Notes: generated by a model from the letters alone, not told the origin. A stretch of DNA of 64,000 nt from a virus (IMGVR_UViG_3300028388_006015:11148-75147); one strand, 5' to 3'; positions 3,903 to 59,301 are shown, counted from the first letter of the stretch. Translations and numbers: made by a program.

Positions 3903-4252
3903 TACTGTCTCATTACTTTTGCGCCATTTTCTCCGTCCTCGAGTACAGTGCAAGATTCTAAATTAAAATCCTTGACCAGCAAACGAGCAATCATCTCGCA
4001 ACTCATATTGCCAAAGTCCAACATTGCATATGTTGGCGACATATATGTTATTTCAAGATAGTCACGCACTGCACGTTTAAATAGAATAATCTCGATGTCT
4101 CGATCGTCATGCGTCACGCTCTTTTCGCACGTAATGTGAAATATATGACGATGAGGGTATTCAAGAAACTGAACTGTGACATCAAACTGACCTGCGTCCG
4201 GCCAACAATGAATTCCTTCTACCTGAAGATTGATAATTATGTTAACTCTCAT
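3902..4252 (-). CDS. dpdL: DpdL-like QueD paralog (putative CDG decarboxylase, T-fold)
   Basis: EGIHCWPDA, LEYPHRHIF (LxxxHRHxF), SCEMIA, EDGENG; second T-fold gene in a cluster that already has a canonical QueD. Confidence 0.7.
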   Translation of the reverse strand: MRVNIIINLQVEGIHCWPDAGQFDVTVQFLEYPHRHIFHITCEKSVTHDDRDIEIILFKRAVRDYLEITYMSPTYAMLDFGNMSCEMIARLLVKDFNLESCTVLEDGENGAKVMRQ

Positions 4253-4914
4253 GCTTTGCGTTGTTTGTCGTTTTGATAGGAAGATCCCTTAGATTCGTTA
4301 CCGTATAAGTCTCCATCCTGAACAGGATTAACTGAATGAGCGAGAATTTGACCGAGACGAGCATCTTTTTGAATGATCACACTTCCATTTAACACATGAA
4401 ACACAGTGCCCATTTGTTCAGTCTCGAATCCTGGATCGAATACTGCAGAAACGAGAAGACATGAACCGCGCAACATCGTTGATCTATGACGAATTTCAAG
4501 CCATGTGTCTGCAGGAATCTGACAGCCTTCATTGAATGTAATGTGATAAGAACCAGGTTTCAATCTCCAACAAATACCATACTCGTCATGCATAAAAGTA
4601 GCACATTCGCGAAGAGGACGAAGATACTTTTTCTCAAAGCCAACAACAAGTTCAATATCTTCTCCATCAGCGGCAGTAAAAACTTCCTGTTCTATTTTAG
4701 CAACAGTAAGATCAATACCAACTTGTTGAATTTGTTTGTCGAGACGAGAAACAATATCAACAAAGTCTTTGCGGTCTTGATCGGTCATGTCTTCTTTGAG
4801 AAGAAGTTGAGGAAGGTTGGTAATGATGCCACTTTCGTATAGATCGCGACCATTCATCGTTGTTAATGGATAGTTAACAGCGGAATACGGAAAAATATCT
4901 TGCAAATGAATCAT
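4249..4914 (-). CDS. trimeric dUTPase / dCTP deaminase-fold protein
   Basis: GIDLTV, LKPGSYHI, RSTMLRG, VFDPGF, ARLGQI, C-terminal YQ; no obvious TLE catalytic Glu of deaminases. Confidence 0.75.
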   Translation of the reverse strand: MIHLQDIFPYSAVNYPLTTMNGRDLYESGIITNLPQLLLKEDMTDQDRKDFVDIVSRLDKQIQQVGIDLTVAKIEQEVFTAADGEDIELVVGFEKKYLRPLRECATFMHDEYGICWRLKPGSYHITFNEGCQIPADTWLEIRHRSTMLRGSCLLVSAVFDPGFETEQMGTVFHVLNGSVIIQKDARLGQILAHSVNPVQDGDLYGNESKGSSYQNDKQRKA

Positions 4915-4946
4915 AAGATTGTGGTTTTTGCTAAAATTAATACTTT

Positions 4947-5591
4947 TTATAATGATTTGCTAATCAAACTGAAGAATTCAACTCTCGTACCAACTTCGTT
5001 TGTGTGAAAGTACCCTGAAAGCTGTGACGTGCGCATCAAACTGTCGTGACGAACACCTCTACAACCAACACATTGATGTTTGGCTTCAATAACTACAGCA
5101 ACTCCTCTGTTGCCTGTACACTTTTTATTTACAAAATCGTGCACTTGTTTCGTTAACGATTCTTGAACATTGGGCCTACGAGCAAACCAATCAACGATGC
5201 GATTGAGTTTAGAGAGACCAACCATACGATCGTCCACATTTTTGCCAGGAATATATGCTACATGAGCTACACCAATAAATGGCAAATTGTGATGAGCACA
5301 CATACTGTGAACAGGAATATTGCATTGAATAATCTGACCAGTGTATCGCTCTTCGTTAGGGAATGCTGTAATTTTAGGCTCTTGTGAAAAACATCCCACT
5401 GCAAGATCATTAAACCACGCTTTTGCTACACGTAATGGTGTGTCTCGCATATGTGGATCGTATTGCCAATCAAAACCCAAAGCAGTTAAGAATTTACCAT
5501 AGTGTTTTGCAGCCAAATGTGTGCGAGTTTCTATTTCAGCTTCAGTCAAAGGATTGTTTTGATTGTGATAAATCTTTCTATCTAAGCTCAT
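4947..5591 (-). CDS. folE: GTP cyclohydrolase I
   Basis: DTPLRVAK, SMCAHHNLPFIG, GLSKLNRIV, RPNVQE, AKHQCVGCRGV; probable start MSLDRK at 5591. Confidence 0.95.
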   Translation of the reverse strand: MSLDRKIYHNQNNPLTEAEIETRTHLAAKHYGKFLTALGFDWQYDPHMRDTPLRVAKAWFNDLAVGCFSQEPKITAFPNEERYTGQIIQCNIPVHSMCAHHNLPFIGVAHVAYIPGKNVDDRMVGLSKLNRIVDWFARRPNVQESLTKQVHDFVNKKCTGNRGVAVVIEAKHQCVGCRGVRHDSLMRTSQLSGYFHTNEVGTRVEFFSLISKSL

Positions 5592-5605
5592 AAGACTTTT
5601 TTTTG

Positions 5606-5869
5606 TTAATGATAAGGTTGACAGTAAGTTATTGTAATTTGTTCTCGATAATTCGCGTAATATTCTTTTATTGCACACAATTCGTGAATAATCTCCTGTT
5701 CAGAAGGCATTTGTGGAAAGAATAATTGCTCCTGATGCTCTCTAGGAAGAGGGAGCATATTGATTTGCAACTTGATTAAAAATTTGCAATTGTGATGGGT
5801 GTTACCTTCATCTTCCGGATTAATATCGGAATATCCCAAATGCCTTTTATAGAGTTCTTCTTTACTCAC
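5606..5869 (-). CDS. hypothetical protein inside deazaguanine cluster
   Basis: 87 aa; GTG start overlaps the queE stop (GTGA). Confidence 0.5.
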   Translation of the reverse strand: MSKEELYKRHLGYSDINPEDEGNTHHNCKFLIKLQINMLPLPREHQEQLFFPQMPSEQEIIHELCAIKEYYANYREQITITYCQPYH

Positions 5870-6648
5870 ACCTCTCTTTTATTGCCGTGAATAATAATGT
5901 GCAAACGATCTGTGTAATTGTATCCACGCTCAATGCAGATCTGTTCAAGCCATTGACGTGATTGTTCAAGTTTTTCATTCACATCACCTGCAGGCATAAG
6001 CCAACAATGATTTGCAGGTATATTAAGAACGACACGAATATGTTCAAACTCTTTAAGGGAGTCATCATCCTCAATAACCGGTTTAACTTGATAATCTTTA
6101 CAACCACAACGAATCCATGATTTCATTGCGTCATAATTGCTACGCCATTTATTGTGACGATCTACGTCTTTCTGAGTTACCTTGCGACCAATCTCTGTAA
6201 TAAAACTATCAACGACAGGTACAGAGTTGCTAAGCTTAGGCGAAAGAGAGAGTAAATCAATTCGATGAGATAAACGAGTGCCAAACCATTCGATCCATTC
6301 AGAACCTTCAGTTTCGAGTGTAATGTGACTGTCAGAAACACGCCACCGAATAAACTCAACAACTTGTGGTAAAATTGTCTTTTGAAGTGTAGGACCTCCT
6401 CCAGTAATTATAAAGTGCTTGATATGCTGATTTTCACTAATTAAAGCAGCAATGCGCTCGTACGTCCAAGATCCCTTTTCTGGTTTCCATGAAGAATACC
6501 AAGTATCACAAACACTATTTGCGAATTGACATCTCAATCGACAACCGACAAAACGAATCATAATGCTTGGTGTTCCTATAAGTTTTCCTTCACCCTGCAA
6601 ACAAGTGTACACCTCATTTATTGGCAGTGGTTTACTTTCTGTCATCAT
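5866..6648 (-). CDS. queE: 7-carboxy-7-deazaguanine synthase (radical SAM)
   Basis: EVYTCLQGEG, RFVGCRLRCQFANSVCDT, ITGGGP, LETEG, SLSPKL, RLHI; probable start at 6645/6648. Confidence 0.92.
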   Translation of the reverse strand: MMTESKPLPINEVYTCLQGEGKLIGTPSIMIRFVGCRLRCQFANSVCDTWYSSWKPEKGSWTYERIAALISENQHIKHFIITGGGPTLQKTILPQVVEFIRWRVSDSHITLETEGSEWIEWFGTRLSHRIDLLSLSPKLSNSVPVVDSFITEIGRKVTQKDVDRHNKWRSNYDAMKSWIRCGCKDYQVKPVIEDDDSLKEFEHIRVVLNIPANHCWLMPAGDVNEKLEQSRQWLEQICIERGYNYTDRLHIIIHGNKREV

Positions 6649-7213
6649 ATTCGACAATTCCTTTTTCTTTGGCATATTCTAATATGTGTTTGCTGTTATA
6701 TTCACGAAAATTCAATCGTTCCGCATGATCAATGTCATTGGTTCGCACTATTGTATAGCACTTAGGAGTTTCATACAAAGTTACGGCAGTTGGTATGAGT
6801 CCTTTATATTCAAGAAATAACAATTCCATGGCAAGTAAAATCTCCTTTGCTATGTTCTCTACAGTTGGATTGCAATATTTCAATCCTGTTCGTGTAAAAG
6901 GCTGCTCGTTAGGATCTTGTCTGCCATTTAAACTCATAACCCATGCTTTAGATCCGAGCTTTTTGCACATATCCAAGATCTCCTCGTCGTGCGGATTAGC
7001 AATAAATCCGTGATCTAGTAAATCGTCGATCCATTGCATACCAACGCGCTTAATTTCTTTAAAATCAATCGCATAGCCGATCTCTGCCATTGACGAGAAT
7101 GAGAAGTGGACGTGACAAATGTATGTATGTCCGTGGATGTTGAAACATTTCATCTTTTCATTCATCACTCTATGTCCACTATCAAATGTGGTTATTCTAA
7201 CAATCTCTTGCAT
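6632..7213 (-). CDS. queD: 6-carboxytetrahydropterin synthase
   Basis: FDSGHRV, KCFNIHGHTY, IDFKEIK, LDHGF, NPTVENIA, LYETP. Confidence 0.92.
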   Translation of the reverse strand: MQEIVRITTFDSGHRVMNEKMKCFNIHGHTYICHVHFSFSSMAEIGYAIDFKEIKRVGMQWIDDLLDHGFIANPHDEEILDMCKKLGSKAWVMSLNGRQDPNEQPFTRTGLKYCNPTVENIAKEILLAMELLFLEYKGLIPTAVTLYETPKCYTIVRTNDIDHAERLNFREYNSKHILEYAKEKGIVEYDDRK

Positions 7214-35121: not shown

Positions 35122-36677
35122 TTAAGCCGGTGCTGTACGACCAATATTTATGAACCGTACCATCTTGCCAGGTGCATACAATTGGAGAGTGCCATAAAGC
35201 AGCACCATAAAGCGCGTTGCAGGGCTCAACACTGCGAGATTCATTTTCATCAAGGGTGCAAGTTGCTTGAACTCGTACACATCGGTAGAATCTTCGAACA
35301 ACATCGCTTCTTGAGTATCAGGCAACCAACGATTACGATCACCAACTTTCGTAGCAGCAGCTCCATCGTATCCTGCAGCAACCTGTGCTGTACTGACGGT
35401 AAACAGTGGATAAAACTTAACATCAGCAATGCTATTTGCATCATCCACTGCAGAACGATAAATCTGGTAAGCTGTGGCCGGGTAAGCACCACCACCGTCA
35501 ACAAACTGAAGATCTACACGATCACTTGCGGCAACTGTATCAGCACCACCACCGTTAAGAATCAACAGAGAAGATTCACCATAACGGTTGATTGCACTAA
35601 CAGCGTAATAGTAGTCTCCTGCATCACCAGCAGCAAAAAGAGATGCGCCGTCAGCATTGACAACAGCTGTTGGAGCTCCACCGGCCGTTGGTGCATTGGG
35701 CGCCTTTTGAGAAGTGGCTGCGGTAGCTTGTTTTTTGAATCCAGGCTTTTTCAGGAACTTGTCGTAACGGAAATTAACCTGACCAAACTGAGTTTGAACA
35801 GCATTAACCCGTTGCCCCATAATGCCTTGAGTGATCTGCTGACTGTTGGGGAAAATTTGCTTGTAGCTCAAGAAGTTTTTAGCAAAATCGCTAAGAACGA
35901 CCGGAGGAGCAAGTAGGGTATCGGGATAGGCATGATTATTGATGAGGATTTCGGAAGCCTCTTCAATCACGGTTTCTGTCAAACGTTCGCCGCGAAGGTC
36001 AACAACAACATCGGATCCCATATAGTCAGTCAGGCTGGAATAGGCGTTGCGATGCTGAGCATACATGCCGTTAGGCTGGAATAGGCGTTGCGATGCTGAG
36101 CATACATGCCGTTGAATTCTTGAGGAACGAGACTGGCATCTCCATAGGCAAGTGCGCGGTCAACTTTGCGGAGAATCCACATCGTACCACTTTTTACCTC
36201 ACTGTTGATCGCTCCACCAACACTGGGCTGAATACGAACCAACTGCATCGGGTGACTAACAGAACGAGTTGTTCCGAGGAACTTTACATGTTCTGCCATC
36301 CGACGGTAAACGGTATCTTCTTCTTCCGGAAGTTCACCTTCATTATTAAAGCCTCCGCGATCTTGACCGTAGCTCACGAGCTGATTGAACTCTTCTACAG
36401 TATTATAGGCGGGAGATTTGTTAACCATTCGCCAAAAGACAATATCGCTTTCACGAAACGTCAAGTGTTTGAGTGTGGACTCGAGAGACTCAACTTTCAA
36501 GGGGGCACCACTGGCTGTTGTAGAGCCTGTGACATCACGGCCGGTAACCTGACCTGCCTCCAATGCTTTGCTCAGGGCAGCGAGGTCTTGCGGGGTGGTC
36601 AACGCCTCCCCGAAAGCCCCATCTCCATTTTGCAACGAAGCGTAGTCCTCAAGGTTTACTCCTAAATTATGTACCAT
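35122..36677 (-). CDS. major capsid protein, frameshifted by a 41 bp duplication (~504 aa when repaired)
   Basis: LSKALEAG..GAPLKVESLESTL, EGELP, EFNG in the 36030-36677 ORF continue into DLRG..LAPLMKMNLA..LLYG in 35122-36066; SPO1/K-type MCP with inserted Ig-like segment. Confidence 0.9.
36032..36113. repeat. exact 41 bp tandem duplication
   Basis: AGGCTGGAATAGGCGTTGCGATGCTGAGCATACATGCCGTT at 36032-36072 and 36073-36113. Confidence 0.95.
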
Positions 36678-36722: not shown

Positions 36723-38315
36723 TTACTGAATGATATGGACGTCGTGCTTTGTCTTGAGATCTTCAACGAGCTGTTGTACCGACAAAACCTTATCTCCATA
36801 AGCTTTTTCCAGATCAGGGTTGTTATCAAACGCCTTTTTCAGTGCTGTCATGTTGTGTGCACTACGACGACCAACTGGAGTGCTTTCTACCGTTTCTAGA
36901 CGATCTGTGAGTTCTTGGATTTGATTCTGAAAGCCCTTTACAATAGTGCCAAAGTTTTCTTTCAATTCATCCTGTGAAGCAGAAAAGTCGTCAAATTTTG
37001 ACGAGAGAACATCTTCAATACCTTTGATGATATTATCAGACGGATTGGTTTGATGTGAAAAATCTTCCAGAGGTGCATTATTTTCACCTTTCGACATTGT
37101 CTGCGAACTAGATTGTCCACCGTTATCTTCTTCATTAACGCCCTCCATTGTCTTATTGGGAGCGCTCATTCCTTGAATGGCCTTAACGAGAGTAGCAATG
37201 GCCTTTTCCATCCTGTCAACCTTTTCCATGGCCTTGTTGAAGTTTTCCATTTCAACAAATTTAGCACCATGGGTGACGTTATTGTCGGTTTTGTTGCTCA
37301 TCTCGACACTTTTTGCGTCAGGACCAGATGATACATCTGAGGGCATAGCTTTTACAATGTTGCCTTCAACGGAAAAACCGAGATCTGTCAATGCTTTCGT
37401 TAGATCTTCGTGAGTAAGTGTATTGTTGGTCGATTGTTGCATCGCTGAACGAATTTTTGCAAAATTATAAATCTTAGAAAATTCAGTGAACGGAATATTA
37501 TGCCTTAGCAATAAATTATAAACGTCACCTTTTGTTAAAACTGATTGCCTAAAATTACTATCTGTAGATTTATTAGACAACGGGGCGTATTTCTTTTCTT
37601 TATCGACACTTTCAAGAATTATTGGCTGATGGCTTTCAATTGTAGCTGCTTTTGCTACTTTGATATTAAAGCTGCGATCTATAGTGATTCGATACCCTTG
37701 ATCATTGGTTACGTCAACAATATACTCTTGACCTCCATCAGCAGGATTCTCTCGAGTGTCAAAAGCCATTTCAGTATCGTCATATTCGCCTTTTATTAGC
37801 GATAGTAACGTATTGCTATTTTTTGGAGTTGGTGTTATTGCACAACCAGTAATCTTGGCTTTCTTTACTTTTCGTGGGTCAAACACGTCGCGTTCTACCA
37901 CTTTTCCTTCTATACTAAAGCCCAGTCGACGATTGGATGAAGATTTTTCTAATGTTTGTGCAAGTGCGTAAACTTTACGTGCTTTTTCGGAATGAGGATA
38001 TAAAAAGCCCTCAACGTGCAATTTTTTACCTTTTACAAATGCCTTTGTTGGTTCGCCCACAATAGATGACGGATCGACACTACCTCTATGGTTGTAGTTG
38101 AAATATCCATGATTGAGAAAAAATGACAGGTCAAAACCAGTAGGGTCGAGCATTTCATCATCCGCATCAAGATCGGGAGTAGACGCTATACCTGCAATCA
38201 TCATTTTACCCTGCTCACTACCATCATCTGCTTTTTGTATCTCAATAGGTACAAAAAACTTAAACTTGTCAGGTACTCCGTTTGTTTTAGAGCGATAATG
38301 TGTATTGTGTAGCAT
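36723..38315 (-). CDS. prohead protease-scaffold fusion
   Basis: GIASTPDLDADDE, GYFNYNH, LGFSIEG, AITPTPKN protease domain, followed by a coiled-coil scaffold rich in Phi-x-K-[AG] sites. Confidence 0.85.
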   Translation of the reverse strand: MLHNTHYRSKTNGVPDKFKFFVPIEIQKADDGSEQGKMMIAGIASTPDLDADDEMLDPTGFDLSFFLNHGYFNYNHRGSVDPSSIVGEPTKAFVKGKKLHVEGFLYPHSEKARKVYALAQTLEKSSSNRRLGFSIEGKVVERDVFDPRKVKKAKITGCAITPTPKNSNTLLSLIKGEYDDTEMAFDTRENPADGGQEYIVDVTNDQGYRITIDRSFNIKVAKAATIESHQPIILESVDKEKKYAPLSNKSTDSNFRQSVLTKGDVYNLLLRHNIPFTEFSKIYNFAKIRSAMQQSTNNTLTHEDLTKALTDLGFSVEGNIVKAMPSDVSSGPDAKSVEMSNKTDNNVTHGAKFVEMENFNKAMEKVDRMEKAIATLVKAIQGMSAPNKTMEGVNEEDNGGQSSSQTMSKGENNAPLEDFSHQTNPSDNIIKGIEDVLSSKFDDFSASQDELKENFGTIVKGFQNQIQELTDRLETVESTPVGRRSAHNMTALKKAFDNNPDLEKAYGDKVLSVQQLVEDLKTKHDVHIIQ

Positions 38316-39610
38316 TACTGACTGTTTTTTCGCGTAATAAGATTTACACGTAATTGCTGAAAGTGTAAACTGTCTAACCCAAGCATTCCTGATTGATAAG
38401 CATTTTGTACGACCTCCATGGATTTACTAATTTCTTCCACACTAGGCCATTCACTCATCGTTCCAATAAAATTGTATAAGCGCTCAAGATAATCAAAATG
38501 CTCAAGAATTTCAACGGGATGATCTAATTGTTTTATTTCTTCAGGCTCCAACCAAGCAAATTCTTCATGCTCGTAATTTAACTTGACCTGAGGATCGTCC
38601 ATCTGTGCAAAAAAACAAAAAACATTCCAATCTGCCTCTTCGCGAACACCAATTAATTGAATTTCACTTGGCAGTGTAATGTTTGTCTCTTCCAGTATCT
38701 CTCTGCGTACAAGATCGTACGGAGATTCGTTTTTATCATCACTAGTGCCACCTGGCAAAAACCATTTATTAGGCTCCCAGGGCGCTTCTGGACCTCTCAG
38801 CAATGTTAATATTTTACCACGACTATTACGTATAATGCATACAGCACCATAATTATCGGCCTCAATTGCCTTCTTTAACTTATCATCAACATCTTTATTG
38901 TGCGTTTCCTTTTTAAGATTTAGTCGCTTTAATAGGTCGCTAATATTAAGATCGACAACATAGCACTTTACTCTAAAATTATCATCAACCTCTAACAAAG
39001 ATGCCCAATAATGATTGTTATCTGTAAGAAATTTATCATTACTTATAACAAACTCTCGTGGAGAAATCTGCTCAAGATCAGCTATGCAGCCAAGAATCTT
39101 TTCGTTATTAAATTCGCTTTGAATGGGCTTTAATTCTTTAACTGGAATAAACTGTACCTTAACCTTAATATCTTGATTGATAAAATGCTGCACAATATCT
39201 TCAACATCGTCTTGATTAATCTGAGGCATTCGATCACGAGTACGCTTAGGATCGGTATATTTAAGGTATTTGTGGTATTTAAGATTAGAGAACTCTAAAT
39301 CTCCCAATATGCCCTGAATTCCTTTTTGTAGCTCATTCTGCTGCAATGTTAATTCATCACACAACAAAGTTAATCGAGAAAGTGCACCGTCTCTTTTATT
39401 ATCATAATACTGCTGCACTTGATGTTTTCCAGAACCTGTTTGTACTTGATTGAATGCATTACTTCGACTCTTCTCTAAATCAACCATCTCATTTTTAAGA
39501 GCTTCAATTTGCCTCTTATATGATATGATATTGGTTAGTGAACGAGCACACGCACTATTTTTTGGCTCAGAAGAGAATAAATTGTCGATTAATTGTGAAA
39601 AATAGCTCAT
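38315..39610 (-). CDS. ParB/Srx-like + Nudix hydrolase fusion
   Basis: RDRMPQI..LKPIQSE..VISNDKFLTDNNHYW (ParB-like, degenerate DGHHR); WFLPGG..ESPYDLVRREILEETNI Nudix box. Confidence 0.75.
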   Translation of the reverse strand: MSYFSQLIDNLFSSEPKNSACARSLTNIISYKRQIEALKNEMVDLEKSRSNAFNQVQTGSGKHQVQQYYDNKRDGALSRLTLLCDELTLQQNELQKGIQGILGDLEFSNLKYHKYLKYTDPKRTRDRMPQINQDDVEDIVQHFINQDIKVKVQFIPVKELKPIQSEFNNEKILGCIADLEQISPREFVISNDKFLTDNNHYWASLLEVDDNFRVKCYVVDLNISDLLKRLNLKKETHNKDVDDKLKKAIEADNYGAVCIIRNSRGKILTLLRGPEAPWEPNKWFLPGGTSDDKNESPYDLVRREILEETNITLPSEIQLIGVREEADWNVFCFFAQMDDPQVKLNYEHEEFAWLEPEEIKQLDHPVEILEHFDYLERLYNFIGTMSEWPSVEEISKSMEVVQNAYQSGMLGLDSLHFQQLRVNLITRKNSQ

Positions 39611-40651: not shown

Positions 40652-41386
40652 TTAAAAACGAATTGGTGTCCAATTTAATCCAATCCCGACATAAGGTGCG
40701 GGACTTACCGCATTATTATTTAATGTGAATCCGTATCCAACCGAAACCCCAATGCCAAACTTATTGGTAAGTCTGTCGATGATAATAGCTTCACCATCTA
40801 CAATATCAATATATGGATTGTCGGTTGTAATATCAACAACTGAAGAACGCTTCTTAAAAAAGCCGCCCTTACGCTCAGTAATTTGAGAGGTGAGAGTTGC
40901 ATATGTTTTGAATGCAAGGTCGATCGAATCTTGAGTAGCAACAACGCTCCAATCTGCATACGCGTCTTGATTTTCACCATAATATGCATACTCAGGACAG
41001 TCGTTAGTGATTGTATTGTTTACGGGCACAGGAATTTCAACATATTCAGTATCTATTACCTCACGCGTTAATGTTGGAACGCTACCTTTATATTTGAGCT
41101 CAGCAACTAAGCGCGTATAATTGCGAATCAGACGATCTTGCTTCCGCACCTCTTTAAGAGCTTGATTGAGAAGAGAGTCTTTTTCTGAATACGCCCCTTC
41201 AATCTCATTACGATCAAGAACTAATGCTTCAATGCGAGTATGCGTTTGGTTGAGACTGTCTTTGTACGTATTAATAACGTCGGTGTGATAACTTTCAAGT
41301 TCGCGATGAATTCTTTGTTCCCTCGCACAAAATGATACCGATAACACGATACCGATTGCAAGTATGATGAATAGCCACTTTGTCAT
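40652..41386 (-). CDS. spanin-like membrane protein
   Basis: N-terminal TM helix, coiled coil, C-terminal amphipathic beta strands FGIGVSVGYG..PYVGIGLNW ending in Phe. Confidence 0.55.
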   Translation of the reverse strand: MTKWLFIILAIGIVLSVSFCAREQRIHRELESYHTDVINTYKDSLNQTHTRIEALVLDRNEIEGAYSEKDSLLNQALKEVRKQDRLIRNYTRLVAELKYKGSVPTLTREVIDTEYVEIPVPVNNTITNDCPEYAYYGENQDAYADWSVVATQDSIDLAFKTYATLTSQITERKGGFFKKRSSVVDITTDNPYIDIVDGEAIIIDRLTNKFGIGVSVGYGFTLNNNAVSPAPYVGIGLNWTPIRF

Positions 41387-41390
41387 AATA

Positions 41391-41993
41391 TTAATATTGT
41401 TTGATTACGTTTTTGATTACGTCCAAGTCAAGACACATTCCCGCCACTCCAATAACTTCATTATTGCGAAATCGCGGATATTTTTGAACAACTAAAAGTG
41501 TAGTTTCGCCTTCAGGGTTTACAAACTTTTCTACACCAATCCAACTCATTTTATTTTCGACAACCCACTTATTGTTCTCCATATAACGCTCAGCAAATTT
41601 TTGATCATTATATAGATCACTTATCTTTTTGCCAATGCAATCCTTTGCACTCAAATTATAATCATTGAGAAATGTTCGCTCATACTCTTTATTGACATAT
41701 AGCATTACACCATCTATGGATGTAAGCCAATGAGCGTTAACGTGATCATAAGTTGCCGATTCAAAGAACACTATTTGAGATTGTAAGATATATACCTGTT
41801 TTTGCAATTCTCCAATCAACAAGTCATTTCTCTCAACCTCTTGTTTTAATGCCAATCTCTCAGCCTTGTATTCACTAATGATTAATACAAGCTCGTCCAT
41901 ATTTGTTTTTCGTCGCGTTGCCAAGTATGTTAAAAAACCACTAATGACAGTGGACGAGAATATAGCTATAACTAGCTGTAATACATTGTCCAT
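41391..41993 (-). CDS. holin-like TM + coiled coil + PAS domain protein
   Basis: One N-terminal TM then RRK, a heptad coil, then WLTSIDGVMLYVNKEYE..DCIGKKISDLY..KYPRF..VIGVAGMCLD (PAS_4-type). Confidence 0.75.
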   Translation of the reverse strand: MDNVLQLVIAIFSSTVISGFLTYLATRRKTNMDELVLIISEYKAERLALKQEVERNDLLIGELQKQVYILQSQIVFFESATYDHVNAHWLTSIDGVMLYVNKEYERTFLNDYNLSAKDCIGKKISDLYNDQKFAERYMENNKWVVENKMSWIGVEKFVNPEGETTLLVVQKYPRFRNNEVIGVAGMCLDLDVIKNVIKQY

Positions 41994-41999
41994 GGGAAT

Positions 42000-43595
42000 T
42001 TAATTAAAAGCACCACTCTTTAGCTCGTCCTCAAAGGCTTTATAAACGGGGTTTGCATTAAAATCATAAAACTCGCCCTGATCTCCTTCTTCGTTATACT
42101 CATCAATGGCCTCGTTACTTTCTTGTCCACCCATAGCTTGTTGTGAGAGCCATTGAATATATTGAGGATTAAGAACAATATCATCGTCTTCAAGATCACG
42201 AGGAAGACCTGCTTTTTCACGAGCTTCTTTGAGTCCCATAATAGAGCCGACTCTTTTAGCATCAAGTTCTACTTCATCTTTTTCGTTTTCAGAATCAAGA
42301 CCAACAAACTCCAAAACAAATTCGTCAGTTAATGGCTCAATAAGCCACCTATTAAGCTTTCTTTGAATAAAACGCATTAATGGTCTCAATCCTTTATCAC
42401 GACTATATTTCAATCGCGCTTCATTATTTCCTTCAAAAAGAGACTGGCTTCCTGAACTTCCACTAAGATGAAAACCAATCTCACTAGGGTCAATACGATA
42501 TACACTACATGCAATCTTCAACAAGTATTCTTGCCACTTAGAGAATTCCATGTCTCGATTAGACTTTTGCATATCTATCCATTCAAAATCATCAGCCTGG
42601 ATCAATGGAGTCTTCCAGCTATTTTGAACACCCGAAACCATTGACCACCATTCTTGACGAAATTCGCTAAGTCGCGTTTCGTTTACAACACCTGCAGCCT
42701 TCCAAACTCCCTTTGGAGCACTTCCTTGAGAAAAGAAGTTACCATTATGCTGATCACCCCACAACATCCATGTTACAATCTTAATAAGTACCTCCAATTC
42801 ACTCATTCCATACCCATTGCTCGTTAAAGTGTTTTGAGGATTTCTGATACCTAAACACATTTCCCAAGGATAGAAATAAGAGATGATCGTATCCTCATAA
42901 AGCTGAACATATTCAGGAGCATATCCATTAACCTTTTGAATATCAGCACTATCATACGTATGATCGACCTTACGAATAGTTGAGCTGTCGCATGTTACAA
43001 ATTCAGTCGGTCTAAAACGACGATCTTGTACGACCTCGAATGCAGCATGATCAAGAACAAGACTGTCAGAAAGCCACTTTCGAATAAAATCCTCAATATT
43101 ATCACCAACCCACTTCTTATCTTCCACGCTACAATTGAGAATGAATTTTTCCAACTCCCTTACCTTCTTGTTGTTGTACAACTTTTCATTGCCATCTCTC
43201 TTATTGCGTTCTCTACGTACAAAGCGAAATCCAACCTCATATTTTTCCCATGCAGGTTGAAGAAATTCGCACACTTGATCTATTCTCGTTCCAATAACTG
43301 CAGCAATTACAGGCGTTTTGGCAATTTTGCGCAACATTTTTTCAGAAACACCAGCAAAACGTTGTTGGTATCCACGAGTATTGTTGTTGCTATAGGGATC
43401 TGAAATTATTGTTGATCGCTTACTTGTATTGGCTTGTTGTTTCGCACTTTGTTGTAATTGTGCAGATACAGAATATGCCTTCATTATTGAATGAGGGTCG
43501 TTGGATAGCATGGCCTTGTGCAGCACTTCTTGTTGACGTGCTTGTAGGTCTTGTATCTGCTTAGATATCTGTTGTAATTCTGTTAATTCTGACAT
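42000..43595 (-). CDS. portal protein
   Basis: IRNP..GYGMSELE, NFFSQGSAPKG, DMEFSKW..IACSVYRIDPSEIG, GLRPLM, EAREKAGL. Confidence 0.92.
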   Translation of the reverse strand: MSELTELQQISKQIQDLQARQQEVLHKAMLSNDPHSIMKAYSVSAQLQQSAKQQANTSKRSTIISDPYSNNNTRGYQQRFAGVSEKMLRKIAKTPVIAAVIGTRIDQVCEFLQPAWEKYEVGFRFVRRERNKRDGNEKLYNNKKVRELEKFILNCSVEDKKWVGDNIEDFIRKWLSDSLVLDHAAFEVVQDRRFRPTEFVTCDSSTIRKVDHTYDSADIQKVNGYAPEYVQLYEDTIISYFYPWEMCLGIRNPQNTLTSNGYGMSELEVLIKIVTWMLWGDQHNGNFFSQGSAPKGVWKAAGVVNETRLSEFRQEWWSMVSGVQNSWKTPLIQADDFEWIDMQKSNRDMEFSKWQEYLLKIACSVYRIDPSEIGFHLSGSSGSQSLFEGNNEARLKYSRDKGLRPLMRFIQRKLNRWLIEPLTDEFVLEFVGLDSENEKDEVELDAKRVGSIMGLKEAREKAGLPRDLEDDDIVLNPQYIQWLSQQAMGGQESNEAIDEYNEEGDQGEFYDFNANPVYKAFEDELKSGAFN

Positions 43596-43667: not shown

Positions 43668-44165
43668 TTAAACGCCCTCGGCAGATGTATTATTAATCAA
43701 CTCCTGTTCTTCACCACCATTATCATTATCAAAGAAGAAGTGGTATAGCGGATTGATTATATTTATTACCAATGCAATCGCAAAAGCCTCAAATTGACCG
43801 TTTCCTGATATCCAAGCAAACAGTGTCTCTATTAATTGAGCTGCTGCTCCATCAGGAAACGCAATACCTAAACCTACAGGAATCATAAGAAGAACAGTCA
43901 AGGATTGAATCCTAAAATTCATAGATTTTAGAAAATCCCACGACCATTGTTGAGTTTTTGTTAGCAACTTTAATACCGGGTTAAGAAAGTTTGTAATAAG
44001 CAACGCCACAATGGCTCCGATGTTGCCTCCATTAAAAACTTCAAACACCTCTCCTCCTGATACTCCAATATCAAAACCGTTAAGGTTAAATACGAGCAAA
44101 ACGAGCGATATCAAAGATACAAAAAAGTTGCGACTATCAAAAGTTGCATTAATCTTGGTTTGCAT
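43668..44165 (-). CDS. 4-TM membrane protein with internal duplication (holin candidate)
   Basis: Two halves SRNF..NFLNP / SMNF..NIINP, each with two hydrophobic segments; acidic tail. Confidence 0.55.
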   Translation of the reverse strand: MQTKINATFDSRNFFVSLISLVLLVFNLNGFDIGVSGGEVFEVFNGGNIGAIVALLITNFLNPVLKLLTKTQQWSWDFLKSMNFRIQSLTVLLMIPVGLGIAFPDGAAAQLIETLFAWISGNGQFEAFAIALVINIINPLYHFFFDNDNGGEEQELINNTSAEGV

Positions 44166-44170
44166 GACTA

Positions 44171-44746
44171 CTAAAGTTTTTTGCAATGAAAAGTAAGTTG
44201 AATTTTAATGTCTGTTGGAGCGACTCCTCCAGTTCCATCTTTGTTGTTATCAGCACCTCCATGCCATGGAAGAATATAGGCGGCTTTGCGAAAATCTTTA
44301 TCCCATAAATATTGCGCCTCTATTGCTTTTTCGTCAGTGAAAATCTTGATCTTTACAAGACTGTCGTGAATAAATCTAATTTCACCACTAACATCTTGTC
44401 CTCGTTTAACACTTATTTCATTAGGTCTGACGAACTTGCCTTTATCATAGTTAAAATACGGAGCAATATCCCAAGTACCTTTTTCAGGGTTTGATTGGAA
44501 CGTTACAATAGCAGCATCATAATTTGAAGGATTATTCTTGTTAAGATTAACGCCAAATAATTTGCTACTATCTAGTTGATCAGGATCTGGACGTATATCG
44601 TATGGATCGCTTAATATGCGAAATGAAAACTGAATACTATGCGTTTTTCGAACATTAATGCTCTTGAGAAAACGATAGTAAAAACGAGCAACTAAAGCTT
44701 TTACGCTTCTATCTATGTGGTGGCCTTTTTTAATTGTATAGATCAT
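44171..44746 (-). CDS. hypothetical beta-sandwich protein
   Basis: 191 aa; KLFG..PWHGG..AP pattern; start overlaps the upstream stop. Confidence 0.55.
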   Translation of the reverse strand: MIYTIKKGHHIDRSVKALVARFYYRFLKSINVRKTHSIQFSFRILSDPYDIRPDPDQLDSSKLFGVNLNKNNPSNYDAAIVTFQSNPEKGTWDIAPYFNYDKGKFVRPNEISVKRGQDVSGEIRFIHDSLVKIKIFTDEKAIEAQYLWDKDFRKAAYILPWHGGADNNKDGTGGVAPTDIKIQLTFHCKKL

Positions 44747-56895: not shown

Positions 56896-59301
56896 TTAAC
56901 TTTGCAGTGTTACCATTGCAATCTTCTTCCAGTCACGTCCTGTACCTTTCATTTGCTGCTGAATCTTGATCATATTACCAAGTGTACGTGCATTCAGCTT
57001 ACCTTCACGAATCTTATGGGCATTTTCTTCAATGAATGATACTGCTTCGTTACGTTCTTGTTCTGTTGTCATCAATTCCTTGCCATCTGCATCCTCAATT
57101 GGCATCTTATGAACAATCTGCTTCAGACGCTCAACTGTTTCGTCAACTGTCATTGACAAGTCACATGCGAGAGCACGACTATCAACGAGTGGCTGTGGCA
57201 TATCTTGAGGTGCAAGGTTGGAGATGAAAATAACACGACCTGTAAATGCAAAACGCTTAGGCACTATTGCAACACCTTTTGCATTTTCATGACCTTCTTT
57301 GGATGTTTTAATATCTCGACCACTGTCGTATACTACTGTTCCATCACCACTTGTATCAAGTGCTCCTTTAAAAATGTTAACACTAGTCTCGTCTTGTAGT
57401 ACACTGTCACAATCATCAAATACGATTGTTTTGCCATTGTGCTCGTACAGTGCTTTAAACATCGCGGTAGGAGTAGATTTGCCTGTGATCTTGACAAAAT
57501 CGTATTCTTCAGGTTGATTAACATCGTGCCCTTGATCGTACGGATTGAATTCTACGCGATTGTGACGCTTCATCACCTGCTTTAACGTGTAAGTGTTGTG
57601 CGTTACTGTATACCCTTCTGTTAAATATAGTGACTCAACATCTGAGACAGTAATACAAGTACATTCACCATCTTGTACTTGAGTAATATCGACAATGGCT
57701 TGTCCTCTAACATTCTTACGACGTTTTTTTGACTGCCATATATCTGCCTTTCTTGATAATCGAAATGGACAGTATTCAGGTGGCATTTGAAAGTTAATAG
57801 CCCAAGCATCGCCACTTGTACGCTTTTGCTTAGTAAGAGTAGCTTTGCGACCAAATGACTTAACTATCTCGTGAAAATCTTTAGCAAGAGTATCGCTAAC
57901 AGTGTAATATATGCACACACCATTCTTGCCGATAGTACCATCTGTATCCATCATTCCTTGAATTAACGCATGACGTTGCTGAATACTACCGTAACGATAT
58001 TGTTCAGGAATAAACTTTGTGTGACTGTCTTTGTTCGCCAGACCAAATGATTGTAATGCTTTTGATAGATGAACTCGATCTTCACCAAGAATACGATAGC
58101 TGTTGCTATTTTTAGATGAAAGATTGAGATGACCAAACGCCTTATGAAATTCACTATCATCCTCGTCGCCAACACTAATCAATAATGCATGATTGTCGAT
58201 TCGAGTTAGACATCCATCTCCCAAGAAATAGCCTAATAGATAAGGGTCTATTTCTTGATCTTTTTCAGTGTGCTGAGCAGGTTGTGCGTATGGAATGAGA
58301 TATCGCCACTCTGGCCAAATCTTATTGCCATTTTTAGTTGTCCCCTCTTCTCGCAGTCGTAATTTACGCTCCATTAATTGTTCTGTGGTCAGAACTCTCC
58401 AGCGACCTCCGTGCTTACGCTTTTTTGTATCTTTGCAAAACCACGATGTTTTGTCCCACACCTTCCATAAGTGATCTCGACCAGCAGGTAATATAGTACC
58501 ATCCATCAATTTGATTTCAAACACCTCTTTTGTGCCTTGAGGGTGAACTTGAAGTACGACAGTCTCCTCGCCGTTTGCATTTAAAACCTTATCTCCAGCT
58601 TTAACTTCTCCGTGAGTAGTAAATCCATTTGGAGTATAGATTTTTGATGAGTTCAACATCTCTTTACCAACTCCACCCGTACCAAATGCAATAACTGACT
58701 TAGAAAGTCCAGTGGCACACATATCAAGAAATACATCATATGCATCCCAACGCTGTTCTACGTCAATTTGAGGAGCAGCCTGATCAATAATTTTTGGATC
58801 AACACTACGTTTTGGGGTAGGTGCTACTTTCGTTCCAATACCAAATTCCTTGGAGATCTGATGAACGCGAGAATAATTTGCTCCCGTTAAAGAAGCGATC
58901 TGCTTTTTGTCTGTCATTCCTAACTTAAACAACCCGCGAATCTTGGCACTTTGATTTGTGTTTGCATTGATAATGCTGTCAATTTTATCTTCAACGGAAA
59001 CACTCTTTTTGTGCTTAACTGGTTTTTGCTCGTCAGTTTTGACATACACTGTTCTGCGATGACCTCTCTTATCAACAATTTGCTTACGTTGTAGCTTAGC
59101 AATGTCTTTCTTGGCTTTTTCAAGTACATCTTCATCAATTGCTCCCTCATTAAAAGATTTCTGTATCGCATTAATATACGTAGCAATATCCTTTTCAAGC
59201 CAAATGTGAGAGTAGCTTTTTTTAAGTTGTTCTAGAGTCGGCAGATCATTCTCTACGAACATTGATTTGTTTATATTGATGTTGAGCGTCGTAAATTCCA
59301 T
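56896..59301 (-). CDS. HTH + AAA-type P-loop ATPase containing an intein
   Basis: Walker A GTGGVGK|T split by the intein; GKSTP..LY, IVFDDCD Walker B, KGALD, FTGRVIFISN, SRA. Confidence 0.85.
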   Translation of the reverse strand: MEFTTLNININKSMFVENDLPTLEQLKKSYSHIWLEKDIATYINAIQKSFNEGAIDEDVLEKAKKDIAKLQRKQIVDKRGHRRTVYVKTDEQKPVKHKKSVSVEDKIDSIINANTNQSAKIRGLFKLGMTDKKQIASLTGANYSRVHQISKEFGIGTKVAPTPKRSVDPKIIDQAAPQIDVEQRWDAYDVFLDMCATGLSKSVIAFGTGGVGKEMLNSSKIYTPNGFTTHGEVKAGDKVLNANGEETVVLQVHPQGTKEVFEIKLMDGTILPAGRDHLWKVWDKTSWFCKDTKKRKHGGRWRVLTTEQLMERKLRLREEGTTKNGNKIWPEWRYLIPYAQPAQHTEKDQEIDPYLLGYFLGDGCLTRIDNHALLISVGDEDDSEFHKAFGHLNLSSKNSNSYRILGEDRVHLSKALQSFGLANKDSHTKFIPEQYRYGSIQQRHALIQGMMDTDGTIGKNGVCIYYTVSDTLAKDFHEIVKSFGRKATLTKQKRTSGDAWAINFQMPPEYCPFRLSRKADIWQSKKRRKNVRGQAIVDITQVQDGECTCITVSDVESLYLTEGYTVTHNTYTLKQVMKRHNRVEFNPYDQGHDVNQPEEYDFVKITGKSTPTAMFKALYEHNGKTIVFDDCDSVLQDETSVNIFKGALDTSGDGTVVYDSGRDIKTSKEGHENAKGVAIVPKRFAFTGRVIFISNLAPQDMPQPLVDSRALACDLSMTVDETVERLKQIVHKMPIEDADGKELMTTEQERNEAVSFIEENAHKIREGKLNARTLGNMIKIQQQMKGTGRDWKKIAMVTLQS
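57595..58662 (-). mobile_element. class 3 intein (356 aa) with LAGLIDADG homing endonuclease
   Basis: Starts EMLNSSKIYTPNG; block B DHLW; LLGYFLGDG and QGMMDTDG; block F CTCITV; ends VTHN before Thr+1. Confidence 0.88.

Follow-up and report, generated by a model that had tools for sequence, protein, structure and literature searches.

A PAS domain protein with a predicted membrane anchor is linked to lysis genes in phages of Bacteroidota

What is the role of a phage protein that combines a single transmembrane (TM) helix, a coiled coil, and a PAS domain and is encoded immediately upstream of a spanin-like gene? This question is raised by a gene located in a 64-kb window, the whole stretch of virus DNA analyzed here, which belongs to a 75-kb, linear IMG/VR record with an estimated completeness of 72% (CheckV). 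Both burst size and phage fitness depend on the timing of lysis, and in the textbook view, this timing is set by a holin 'clock', apart from a few exceptions like lysis inhibition in T4. If a sensor domain were built into the membrane machinery of lysis, phages would have a general means of reading the internal state of the cell before bursting it. The lysis systems of the phages of Bacteroidota, including those of marine Flavobacteriia, gut and environmental lineages, and crAss-like phages, are almost unstudied, and their holins and spanins are largely unidentified. The original prediction for this locus, made from the DNA sequence alone, was that of a holin-like protein in which the PAS domain might tie lysis to the metabolic state of the host. 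We examined the structure of this protein, the family to which it belongs, and the gene neighborhoods of the homologs, and compared the possible roles in the light of these findings.

Domain architecture and predicted topology of the TM-PAS protein

The gene in question (hereinafter TM-PAS; Table 1) is tightly packed within a late operon that is encoded on one strand, with the stop codon of the portal gene located 6 nt before it and the start of the next gene 4 nt after it. Given that full-length homologs are present in hundreds of sequence clusters, this is a real gene rather than a chance ORF. The encoded protein starts with an acidic tail (MDN) that precedes the TM helix; the basic cluster, the coiled-coil stalk, and the PAS domain follow. 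The AF2 model, built on 60 relatives, has a mean pLDDT of 93.4 and consists of one unbroken helix, encompassing the TM segment and the stalk, and a PAS fold. The order of the elements in the latter, namely, strands 87-92 and 96-100, four helices, and strands 151-158, 164-176, and 179-189, corresponds to the PAS layout, that is, a five-stranded antiparallel sheet with flanking helices arranged as two strands, helices, and three strands. Because in the model the PAS fold runs to the C-terminus of the protein, there is no output domain.

Database searches point in the same direction. The Pfam PAS_4 profile matches residues 92-190 (E=7.1e-6; 26.7 bits versus the curated cut-off of 23.1). A Foldseek comparison with the PDB yielded at least 500 matches at E<=0.001, and all among the matches listed are PAS, LOV, or sensory-box domains; the best of these, with E-values of about 1e-7 to 1e-8, include NifL, the PAS domain of BvgS, VqmA, FixL, and LOV domains. 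NifL, BvgS, VqmA, and FixL are cytoplasmic sensors. When PDB sequences were searched with a profile, a sensory-box protein and VqmA were matched weakly (E about 6e-4). The best-matching PHROG, phrog_10199, is of unknown function, and no cofactor or ligand motif was identified in the protein. The architecture proposed in the original prediction, that is, a single TM helix, the RRK cluster, a coiled coil, and a complete PAS domain without an output domain, is thus confirmed by the ORF, the PAS_4 match, the AF2 model, and the Foldseek matches, the last two providing the structural evidence for PAS.

The TM-PAS protein can be predicted to be a single-pass inner-membrane protein, with the short N-terminus in the periplasm and the stalk and the PAS domain in the cytoplasm. 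Positive charge is higher after the TM helix than before it in 115 of 133 family members, which, under the positive-inside rule, predicts an N-out, C-in orientation. The cytoplasmic location of the C-terminus, which had been considered likely from the start, is supported as a prediction by this charge bias, by the RRK cluster after the TM helix of the protein itself, and by the cytoplasmic type of the PAS fold.

Table 1. Genes and protein features around the TM-PAS gene (coordinates in the 64-kb window)
Feature	Coordinates	Strand	Size or residues	Description
TM-PAS (TM-coiled-coil-PAS) gene	41391..41993	-	200 aa	ATG start; evidence from ORF, Pfam, AF2, and full-length family
N-terminal transmembrane helix	41916..41984	-	residues 4-26	Kyte-Doolittle 1.96 over 19 aa
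R27-R28-K29 basic cluster	41907-41915	-	residues 27-29	directly after the TM helix of the TM-PAS protein
Coiled-coil stalk	41748..41906	-	residues 30-82	continuous with the TM helix (AF2, single helix 2-82)
PAS domain	41427..41735	-	residues 87-189	protein ends 11 residues further
Spanin-like gene	40652..41386	-	244 aa	TM helix at the N-terminus, then a coiled coil; C-terminal part rich in beta structure, last residues ...GIGLNWTPIRF
Portal gene	42000..43595	-		Phage_portal E=5e-24, phrog_12; between the holin candidate and the TM-PAS gene
Best holin candidate in the window	43668..44165	-	165 aa	from ATG; four TM helices, acidic disordered tail

A large protein family with a conserved membrane helix

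Searching 1.84 billion cluster representatives with a profile retrieved the TM-PAS family, with 99 clusters at E<=1e-30 and about 625 clusters at E<=1e-10. The family members come mostly from phage contigs, and nearly all of them are about 185-220 aa long and align end to end. The N-tail is short and usually acidic. The TM helix is rich in Gly, Ala, Ser, and Thr and carries a conserved GG...Y...RK pattern in which small residues (GG or SG) are retained; such conservation, extending beyond hydrophobicity, suggests that the helix makes a specific contact with a helix of a partner protein. The lengths of the stalk or linker peak at 61-62, 68-69, 72, and 75-76 residues, roughly in heptad steps. 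The PAS domain is characterized by the motifs LPxPxWLKD, NxAYExxFL, KYPR, and IGxxGxA. Some members (P0051, P0079, P0100, P0101, and P0130) have an additional, helical C-terminal extension of 85-100 aa after the PAS domain; in two of these, P0079 and P0130, the N-terminal TM helix is absent as called. A dual-start motif resembling that of lambda S107 was considered as a possible family trait and was ruled out, being present in only 4 of 142 members; g078 of Cellulophaga phage phi14:2 begins with MKM.

The protein encoded in the window is a divergent member of the family, with at most 34% identity to the others and with HVNAHW in place of LPxPxW. It retains W89, N101, E105, F108, G121, the K171-Y-P-R174 motif, G182, and G185. 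Literature searches combining PAS with holin, antiholin, or endolysin, and searches on crAss lysis genes, returned no description of the TM-PAS family, and neither did the literature on DUF6808/DUF6549, the domains discussed below in connection with the adjacent gene. A review of the Crassvirales mentions only lysins and spanins in relation to lysis. The members from cultured phages are annotated by domain only, and no functional study of these proteins was found in the literature. The family is large and undescribed in the literature searched, and the window protein adds to it a divergent sequence encoded at an unusual location.

Gene neighborhoods of the homologs

About 20 distinct loci had usable context, a small sample gathered via one conserved motif, and within this sample a cell-wall hydrolase is encoded within three genes of the PAS gene at 7 loci and directly next to it at 5. 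For a random gene in a phage with about 100 genes, direct adjacency to a hydrolase would be expected in about 2% of the cases. The hydrolases encoded nearby span six unrelated families (GH19, GH108, M15, T4-type lysozyme, Amidase_2, and DUF5675), five of which are represented among the directly adjacent ones, often with overlapping stop and start codons. The exchange of unrelated enzymes in one slot is typical of lysis cassettes.

Among the cultured phages, only g078 of phi14:2 and the homologs in Chryseobacterium phages MA9V-1 and MA9V-2 were found to belong to the family. These proteins are of the same size and the same TM, coiled-coil, and PAS layout as the window protein, with 28-30% identity over the full length. 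In phi14:2, g078, annotated as 'PAS fold protein' (YP_008242302.1), overlaps the start of the GH19 endolysin gene g077 located directly downstream, which is followed by g076, encoding a protein with an N-terminal TM helix and a terminal Phe. In MA9V-1/2 (MA9V1_193; MA9V2_249, annotated as 'regulatory protein'), the GH108 endolysin gene is two genes upstream, the order being endolysin, lipoprotein, PAS protein, one-TM protein, and a protein with a lipobox and a C-terminal TM helix, which is the u-spanin layout. The genes of the cultured phages thus lie inside clear lysis cassettes, whereas that in the window lies between the portal gene and the spanin-like gene, and no endolysin was found.

The metagenomic loci present further variants of this arrangement. 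Peptidase_M15_3 is encoded directly upstream of the PAS gene in L007/L015, and Amidase_2 directly downstream in L023, a Cyclobacteriaceae MAG. In L014, a gene for a T4-type lysozyme (Phage_lysozyme, E=1e-29) overlaps the PAS gene directly downstream and is followed by a u-spanin-like gene. DUF5675 genes adjoin the PAS gene or are located near it in L036 and L020; in a 2026 preprint, structural grouping places this domain together with C82-type peptidases as a candidate lysin (10.64898/2026.04.11.717860).

None of the hydrolases neighboring the PAS genes has an N-terminal hydrophobic segment; these endolysins are soluble and would therefore need a true holin. A small multi-TM, holin-like gene is found beside the PAS gene in about half of the loci (L004, L005/6, L009, L011, L019, L024, L025, L035, and MA9V), and a PHROG scan of the neighboring membrane proteins returned no holin or spanin names. 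No lysis neighbor was recognizable at four loci (L008, L012, L030/37/38, and L033), and in L030/37/38, the PAS gene is located among head genes, with no endolysin nearby.

Taken together with the context in the window, the synteny in the relatives makes the linkage of the TM-PAS family to lysis genes well supported. The original prediction would have been weakened had the homologs been found apart from lysis genes; they proved to adjoin endolysins of six unrelated families.

Lysis genes in the window

Along the direction of transcription, the late genes of the window phage encode a giant fiber, a LamG protein, a 226-aa ORF, a 191-aa protein, the 165-aa protein with four TM helices, and the portal, followed by TM-PAS, the 244-aa spanin-like protein, a 50-aa ORF, a 305-aa protein, a NUDIX fusion, the prohead protease/scaffold, and the capsid. 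The 305-aa protein has only weak family matches, and its position after the portal gene is the same in Bacteroides phage DAC19.

We searched for an endolysin in several ways. No Pfam hydrolase domain was detected in any ORF of at least 90 aa in the window, the Pfam scans having covered 88 of the larger ORFs of the contig, including those in the 11 kb outside the window; six six-frame family searches of the contig found nothing, and neither did tblastn with the endolysins of phi14:2, MA9V-1/2, and MA9V-3. The 191-aa gene (44171-44746) was considered as a candidate and rejected, given that its product has no Pfam or PHROG match; the nearest protein-atlas clusters are uncharacterized viral proteins with no common family. 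The endolysin of this phage may be encoded in the missing 28% of the genome or may be unrecognizable.

No close relatives of the window phage were found in IMG/VR via the portal protein, and the nearest cultured relative by this marker is Chryseobacterium phage MA9V-3 (38% identity). In MA9V-3 (L044, 1725-5708), the portal gene is followed by genes for two 3-TM proteins, a protein with a lipobox and a C-terminal TM helix, a 545-aa protein, and a GH19-type endolysin (E=1e-24 against an endolysin of solved structure), all annotated as hypothetical. The position immediately downstream of the portal gene is therefore a lysis slot in this phage lineage.

The product of the gene that follows TM-PAS is spanin-like by synteny. 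The TM helix (residues 3-21, Kyte-Doolittle 2.25) is followed by a charged helical region, so that the protein has the inner-membrane anchor and the coiled coil expected of a spanin, and there are weak matches to DUF6808/DUF6549 and phrog_14997. Homologs are encoded in Elizabethkingia phage TCUEAP3, after an amidase and a 107-aa one-TM protein, and in Flavobacterium phage 1/32, after a 3-TM protein and a peptidase; all three proteins share the C-terminal motif FGxG..GYG...GxG.NY.L.F. The earlier description of this neighbor as spanin-like is borne out insofar as its relatives in cultured phages hold the post-endolysin spanin slot. A word-index homolog search with the 244-aa protein returned the query itself only. 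The protein lacks a lipobox, as Cys occurs close to the N-terminus only in VSFC, with Phe at -1, and no embedded or adjacent lipoprotein gene was found; the C-terminus has, instead, a conserved beta hairpin with Phe as the last residue.

The same features recur among phage proteins with DUF6549/DUF6808 (the 244-aa protein; L039, 3153-3857; L040, 3009-3701), which have an N-terminal TM helix and a C-terminal Phe hairpin and lack a lipobox. Such proteins could be single-gene, envelope-spanning devices that reach the outer membrane by a beta signal rather than a lipid anchor.

The holin of this phage is probably the 165-aa protein encoded two genes upstream of TM-PAS. In the AF2 model (pLDDT 78.6), a unit consisting of a TM helix, a short helix, and another TM helix appears twice, in an apparent internal duplication. 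The protein belongs to a family of at least 40 clusters without a Pfam match that is characterized by repeated N..NP..K/H motifs (NxxNP-repeat), and a homolog (E=3e-12) is encoded directly downstream of the PAS gene in L005/L006. This family is a candidate new holin family of phages of Bacteroidota. A complex prediction for TM-PAS and the 165-aa protein scored 0.00 and was weighed neither way. A search of the cultured-phage collection with a 172-aa protein returned no match.

Possible roles of the TM-PAS protein

The TM-PAS protein probably helps set the time of lysis, as suggested, at the level of gene order, by its relatives in Bacteroidota phages that adjoin cell-bursting genes. The best explanation of the observations on the family as a whole is that it recurs in the lysis cassettes of Bacteroidota phages as an accessory component. 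More specifically, we favor, with a probability of roughly one half, an inside-facing sensor that acts as an accessory or regulator of holin triggering. An antiholin or regulator would be expected in a lysis cassette with a separate holin, and separate multi-TM genes are present in about half of the loci; given that such holin-like genes are frequent and that one is found in the window, an accessory protein fits better than a holin. A regulatory role is favored also by the lack of a short charged tail and of a holin-family match. Furthermore, a rigid, heptad-stepped stalk is the arrangement by which PAS domains transmit signals, in this case, towards the membrane. Two groups of loci fit this reading less well. 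In phi14:2 and L014, no other holin-like gene is apparent, so that there the PAS protein could itself be the holin, and in the window and in L030/37/38, the gene is found among head genes, with no endolysin nearby.

Under the regulator reading, the TM-PAS protein would be made late in infection and would probably dimerize via the stalk and the PAS domain, as is usual for such architectures. The conserved Gly/Ser-rich TM helix would contact the holin in the membrane, which here is probably the 165-aa protein. Hole formation would then be delayed or promoted depending on what the PAS domain senses inside the cell, be it a metabolite or the redox or energy state, after which the downstream 244-aa protein would perform the spanin-like step at the outer envelope. 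The architecture, the fold, the size of the family, and its linkage to endolysin, holin-like, and spanin-like genes are observed; the orientation in the membrane, the dimerization, the contact with the holin, a possible ligand, and whether lysis is advanced or delayed are inferred.

In a broader and more tentative formulation, phages of Bacteroidota would possess a widespread class of 'inside-out' lysis sensors, in which the metabolic or redox state of the host, read by a cytoplasmic PAS domain, would be relayed by the rigid coiled coil to the conserved TM helix, and this helix would gate the holin or form the pore itself. If so, the condition of the infected cell, and not the holin concentration clock alone, would determine when lysis occurs.

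A less likely reading, which is also the one originally proposed, is that the TM-PAS protein is itself the holin, such that oligomers of the Gly-rich TM helix would form the holes, under gating or timing by the PAS domain in the cytoplasm. In a number of relatives, the gene does lie directly beside genes for soluble endolysins without an N-terminal SAR or signal segment, and the conserved GG or SG in the TM helix recalls the glycine-zipper helices of pores. The two cassettes without another holin-like gene are relevant here as well: membrane proteins other than g076, g078, and a 51-aa protein were not found on the late strand of phi14:2, and the annotation of the whole genome includes no holin; in L014, no membrane protein other than the u-spanin-like one is encoded beside the soluble lysozyme. 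However, the TM-PAS protein matches no holin family in Pfam or PHROGs, and although it has an inner-membrane TM helix, this helix is followed by 170 aa of coiled coil and PAS, with a folded C-terminal domain of 115 aa where holins carry a short charged tail. No studied precedent is known for a holin that crosses the membrane once in the N-out, C-in orientation and bears a large domain in the cytoplasm. With a separate small multi-TM gene next to or near the PAS gene in about half of the loci, and a better candidate with four TM helices in the window itself, the proposal that this protein is the holin is not well supported.

More doubtful still is the possibility that the protein has no role in lysis and is a late membrane sensor involved in interference with host signaling, superinfection exclusion, or membrane-linked virion assembly, in which case the position near lysis genes would simply result from late genes for membrane proteins being grouped together. 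The gene is indeed part of the head module in the window and in L030/37/38, between the portal or a 460-aa protein and the scaffold/capsid, L008, L012, and L033 show no recognizable lysis neighbor, and PAS domains commonly mediate contacts with other PAS proteins. Yet the direct, often overlapping, adjacency to five unrelated families of hydrolases is hard to explain in this manner, the head-module position in the window coincides with the lysis slot of this phage lineage, and g078 of phi14:2, unlike most of the flanking genes, carries no note of a virion protein detected by MS/MS. As for the specific suggestion that the protein jams host histidine kinases, we found nothing in its support.

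Finally, an i-spanin-like protein with N-in, C-out topology, a periplasmic coiled coil, and a Cache/PAS-like domain, pairing with the 244-aa protein, is very improbable. In its favor are the succession of a TM helix, a coiled coil, and a globular domain at the C-terminus, which is reminiscent of i-spanins, the spacing of 4 nt to the spanin-like gene downstream, and a weak match to dCache_1 (E=1.8e-4) that falls well short of the cut-off. However, the charge distribution in 115 of 133 members predicts the opposite topology, the fold matches cytoplasmic PAS sensors and not extracytoplasmic Cache/PDC domains, and the family of the 244-aa partner is absent from all other PAS loci.

Comparison with known systems

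In terms of function, the proposed regulator comes closest to the T4 system of lysis inhibition and to the S107/S105 pair of lambda, each of which differs from it in topology, domain, and signal. The T4 holin T has a single TM helix, an N-in, C-out orientation, and a periplasmic globular domain, and is controlled by the antiholins RI, which is periplasmic, and RIII, which is cytoplasmic; the signal for lysis inhibition is superinfection sensed in the periplasm. The likeness consists in a single-TM lysis membrane protein, the soluble domain as the site of timing control, and accessory tuning of holin triggering. However, the globular domain of the TM-PAS protein is a PAS domain predicted to be cytoplasmic, and no sequence relation was seen in Pfam or PHROGs; the predicted N-out, C-in orientation is the reverse of that of T. 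In lambda, S107 and S105 are produced by a dual-start motif on one 3-TM protein. Here, the common elements are the N-out insertion of the first TM helix, as the step at which hole formation is controlled, and intramembrane regulation exerted by a close partner, but lambda S has no sensor domain, and a dual start is rare in the TM-PAS family.

Two other systems share individual elements with the TM-PAS protein. The quorum-sensing receptors VqmA (PDB 6ugl, 6ide, 6kju, and 7dwm) include VqmA(Phage) of vibriophage VP882, a PAS sensor that ties the killing of the host to a small molecule and is, among phage PAS sensors with such a link, the closest to the TM-PAS protein; the PAS domain of VqmA is similar in fold to that of the window protein and shows the weak sequence likeness noted above. 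Unlike the membrane-anchored TM-PAS protein, which lacks a DNA-binding domain and is encoded among late genes, VqmA is a soluble transcription factor that has such a domain. The releasin gp25 of phage Mu (DUF2730) is likewise an accessory protein of lysis that is tethered to the membrane and encoded next to the endolysin, in this case, a SAR endolysin served by releasin. Releasin contains no PAS domain, whereas TM-PAS has no DUF2730 match and the endolysins next to it have no N-terminal hydrophobic segment.

The presence of the gene in the cultured phages phi14:2, whose host is Cellulophaga baltica, and MA9V-1/2, with Chryseobacterium indologenes MA9 as the host of MA9V-1, makes the idea of a PAS-regulated lysis directly testable. 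In addition, the loci analyzed here provide candidate families for phages of Bacteroidota, namely, the 4-TM, NxxNP-repeat proteins as holins and the DUF6549/DUF6808 proteins with a C-terminal Phe hairpin as spanin-type proteins.

Other features of the window phage

The major capsid gene of the window phage contains a perfect 41-nt tandem duplication (36025-36110, minus strand) that shifts the frame, so that the gene is split into overlapping ORFs, 36030-36677 and 35122-36066; MYAQHRNAYSSLT is encoded at the junction in either ORF, and the product of the second matches SU10_MCP. This duplication is either an assembly artifact or a real defective variant. Also in the head module, a 431-aa protein (38315-39610, minus strand) combines an N-terminal match to phrog_2859, of unknown function, with a C-terminal NUDIX hydrolase. 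Two head-module proteins of MA9V-3 (L044, 3379-5016 and 6371-7933) carry a short N-terminal 'GGREYIKTADGWKY'-type motif, for which tblastn gave several matches in the window, at about 54.8-62.4 kb. An 801-aa ORF (56896-59301, minus strand) contains a LAGLIDADG_3 domain at residues 444-497, which may stem from the insertion of an intein or a homing endonuclease into a larger gene.

The region 4249-7213 (minus strand) encompasses a cluster of genes for 7-deazaguanine precursors, that is, GTP cyclohydrolase I (4947-5678), a QueE-like radical SAM protein (5866-6675), and QueD/PTPS (6632-7213), which is adjoined by a dCTP-deaminase-like gene (4249-4914). The cluster suggests a pathway for modified DNA.
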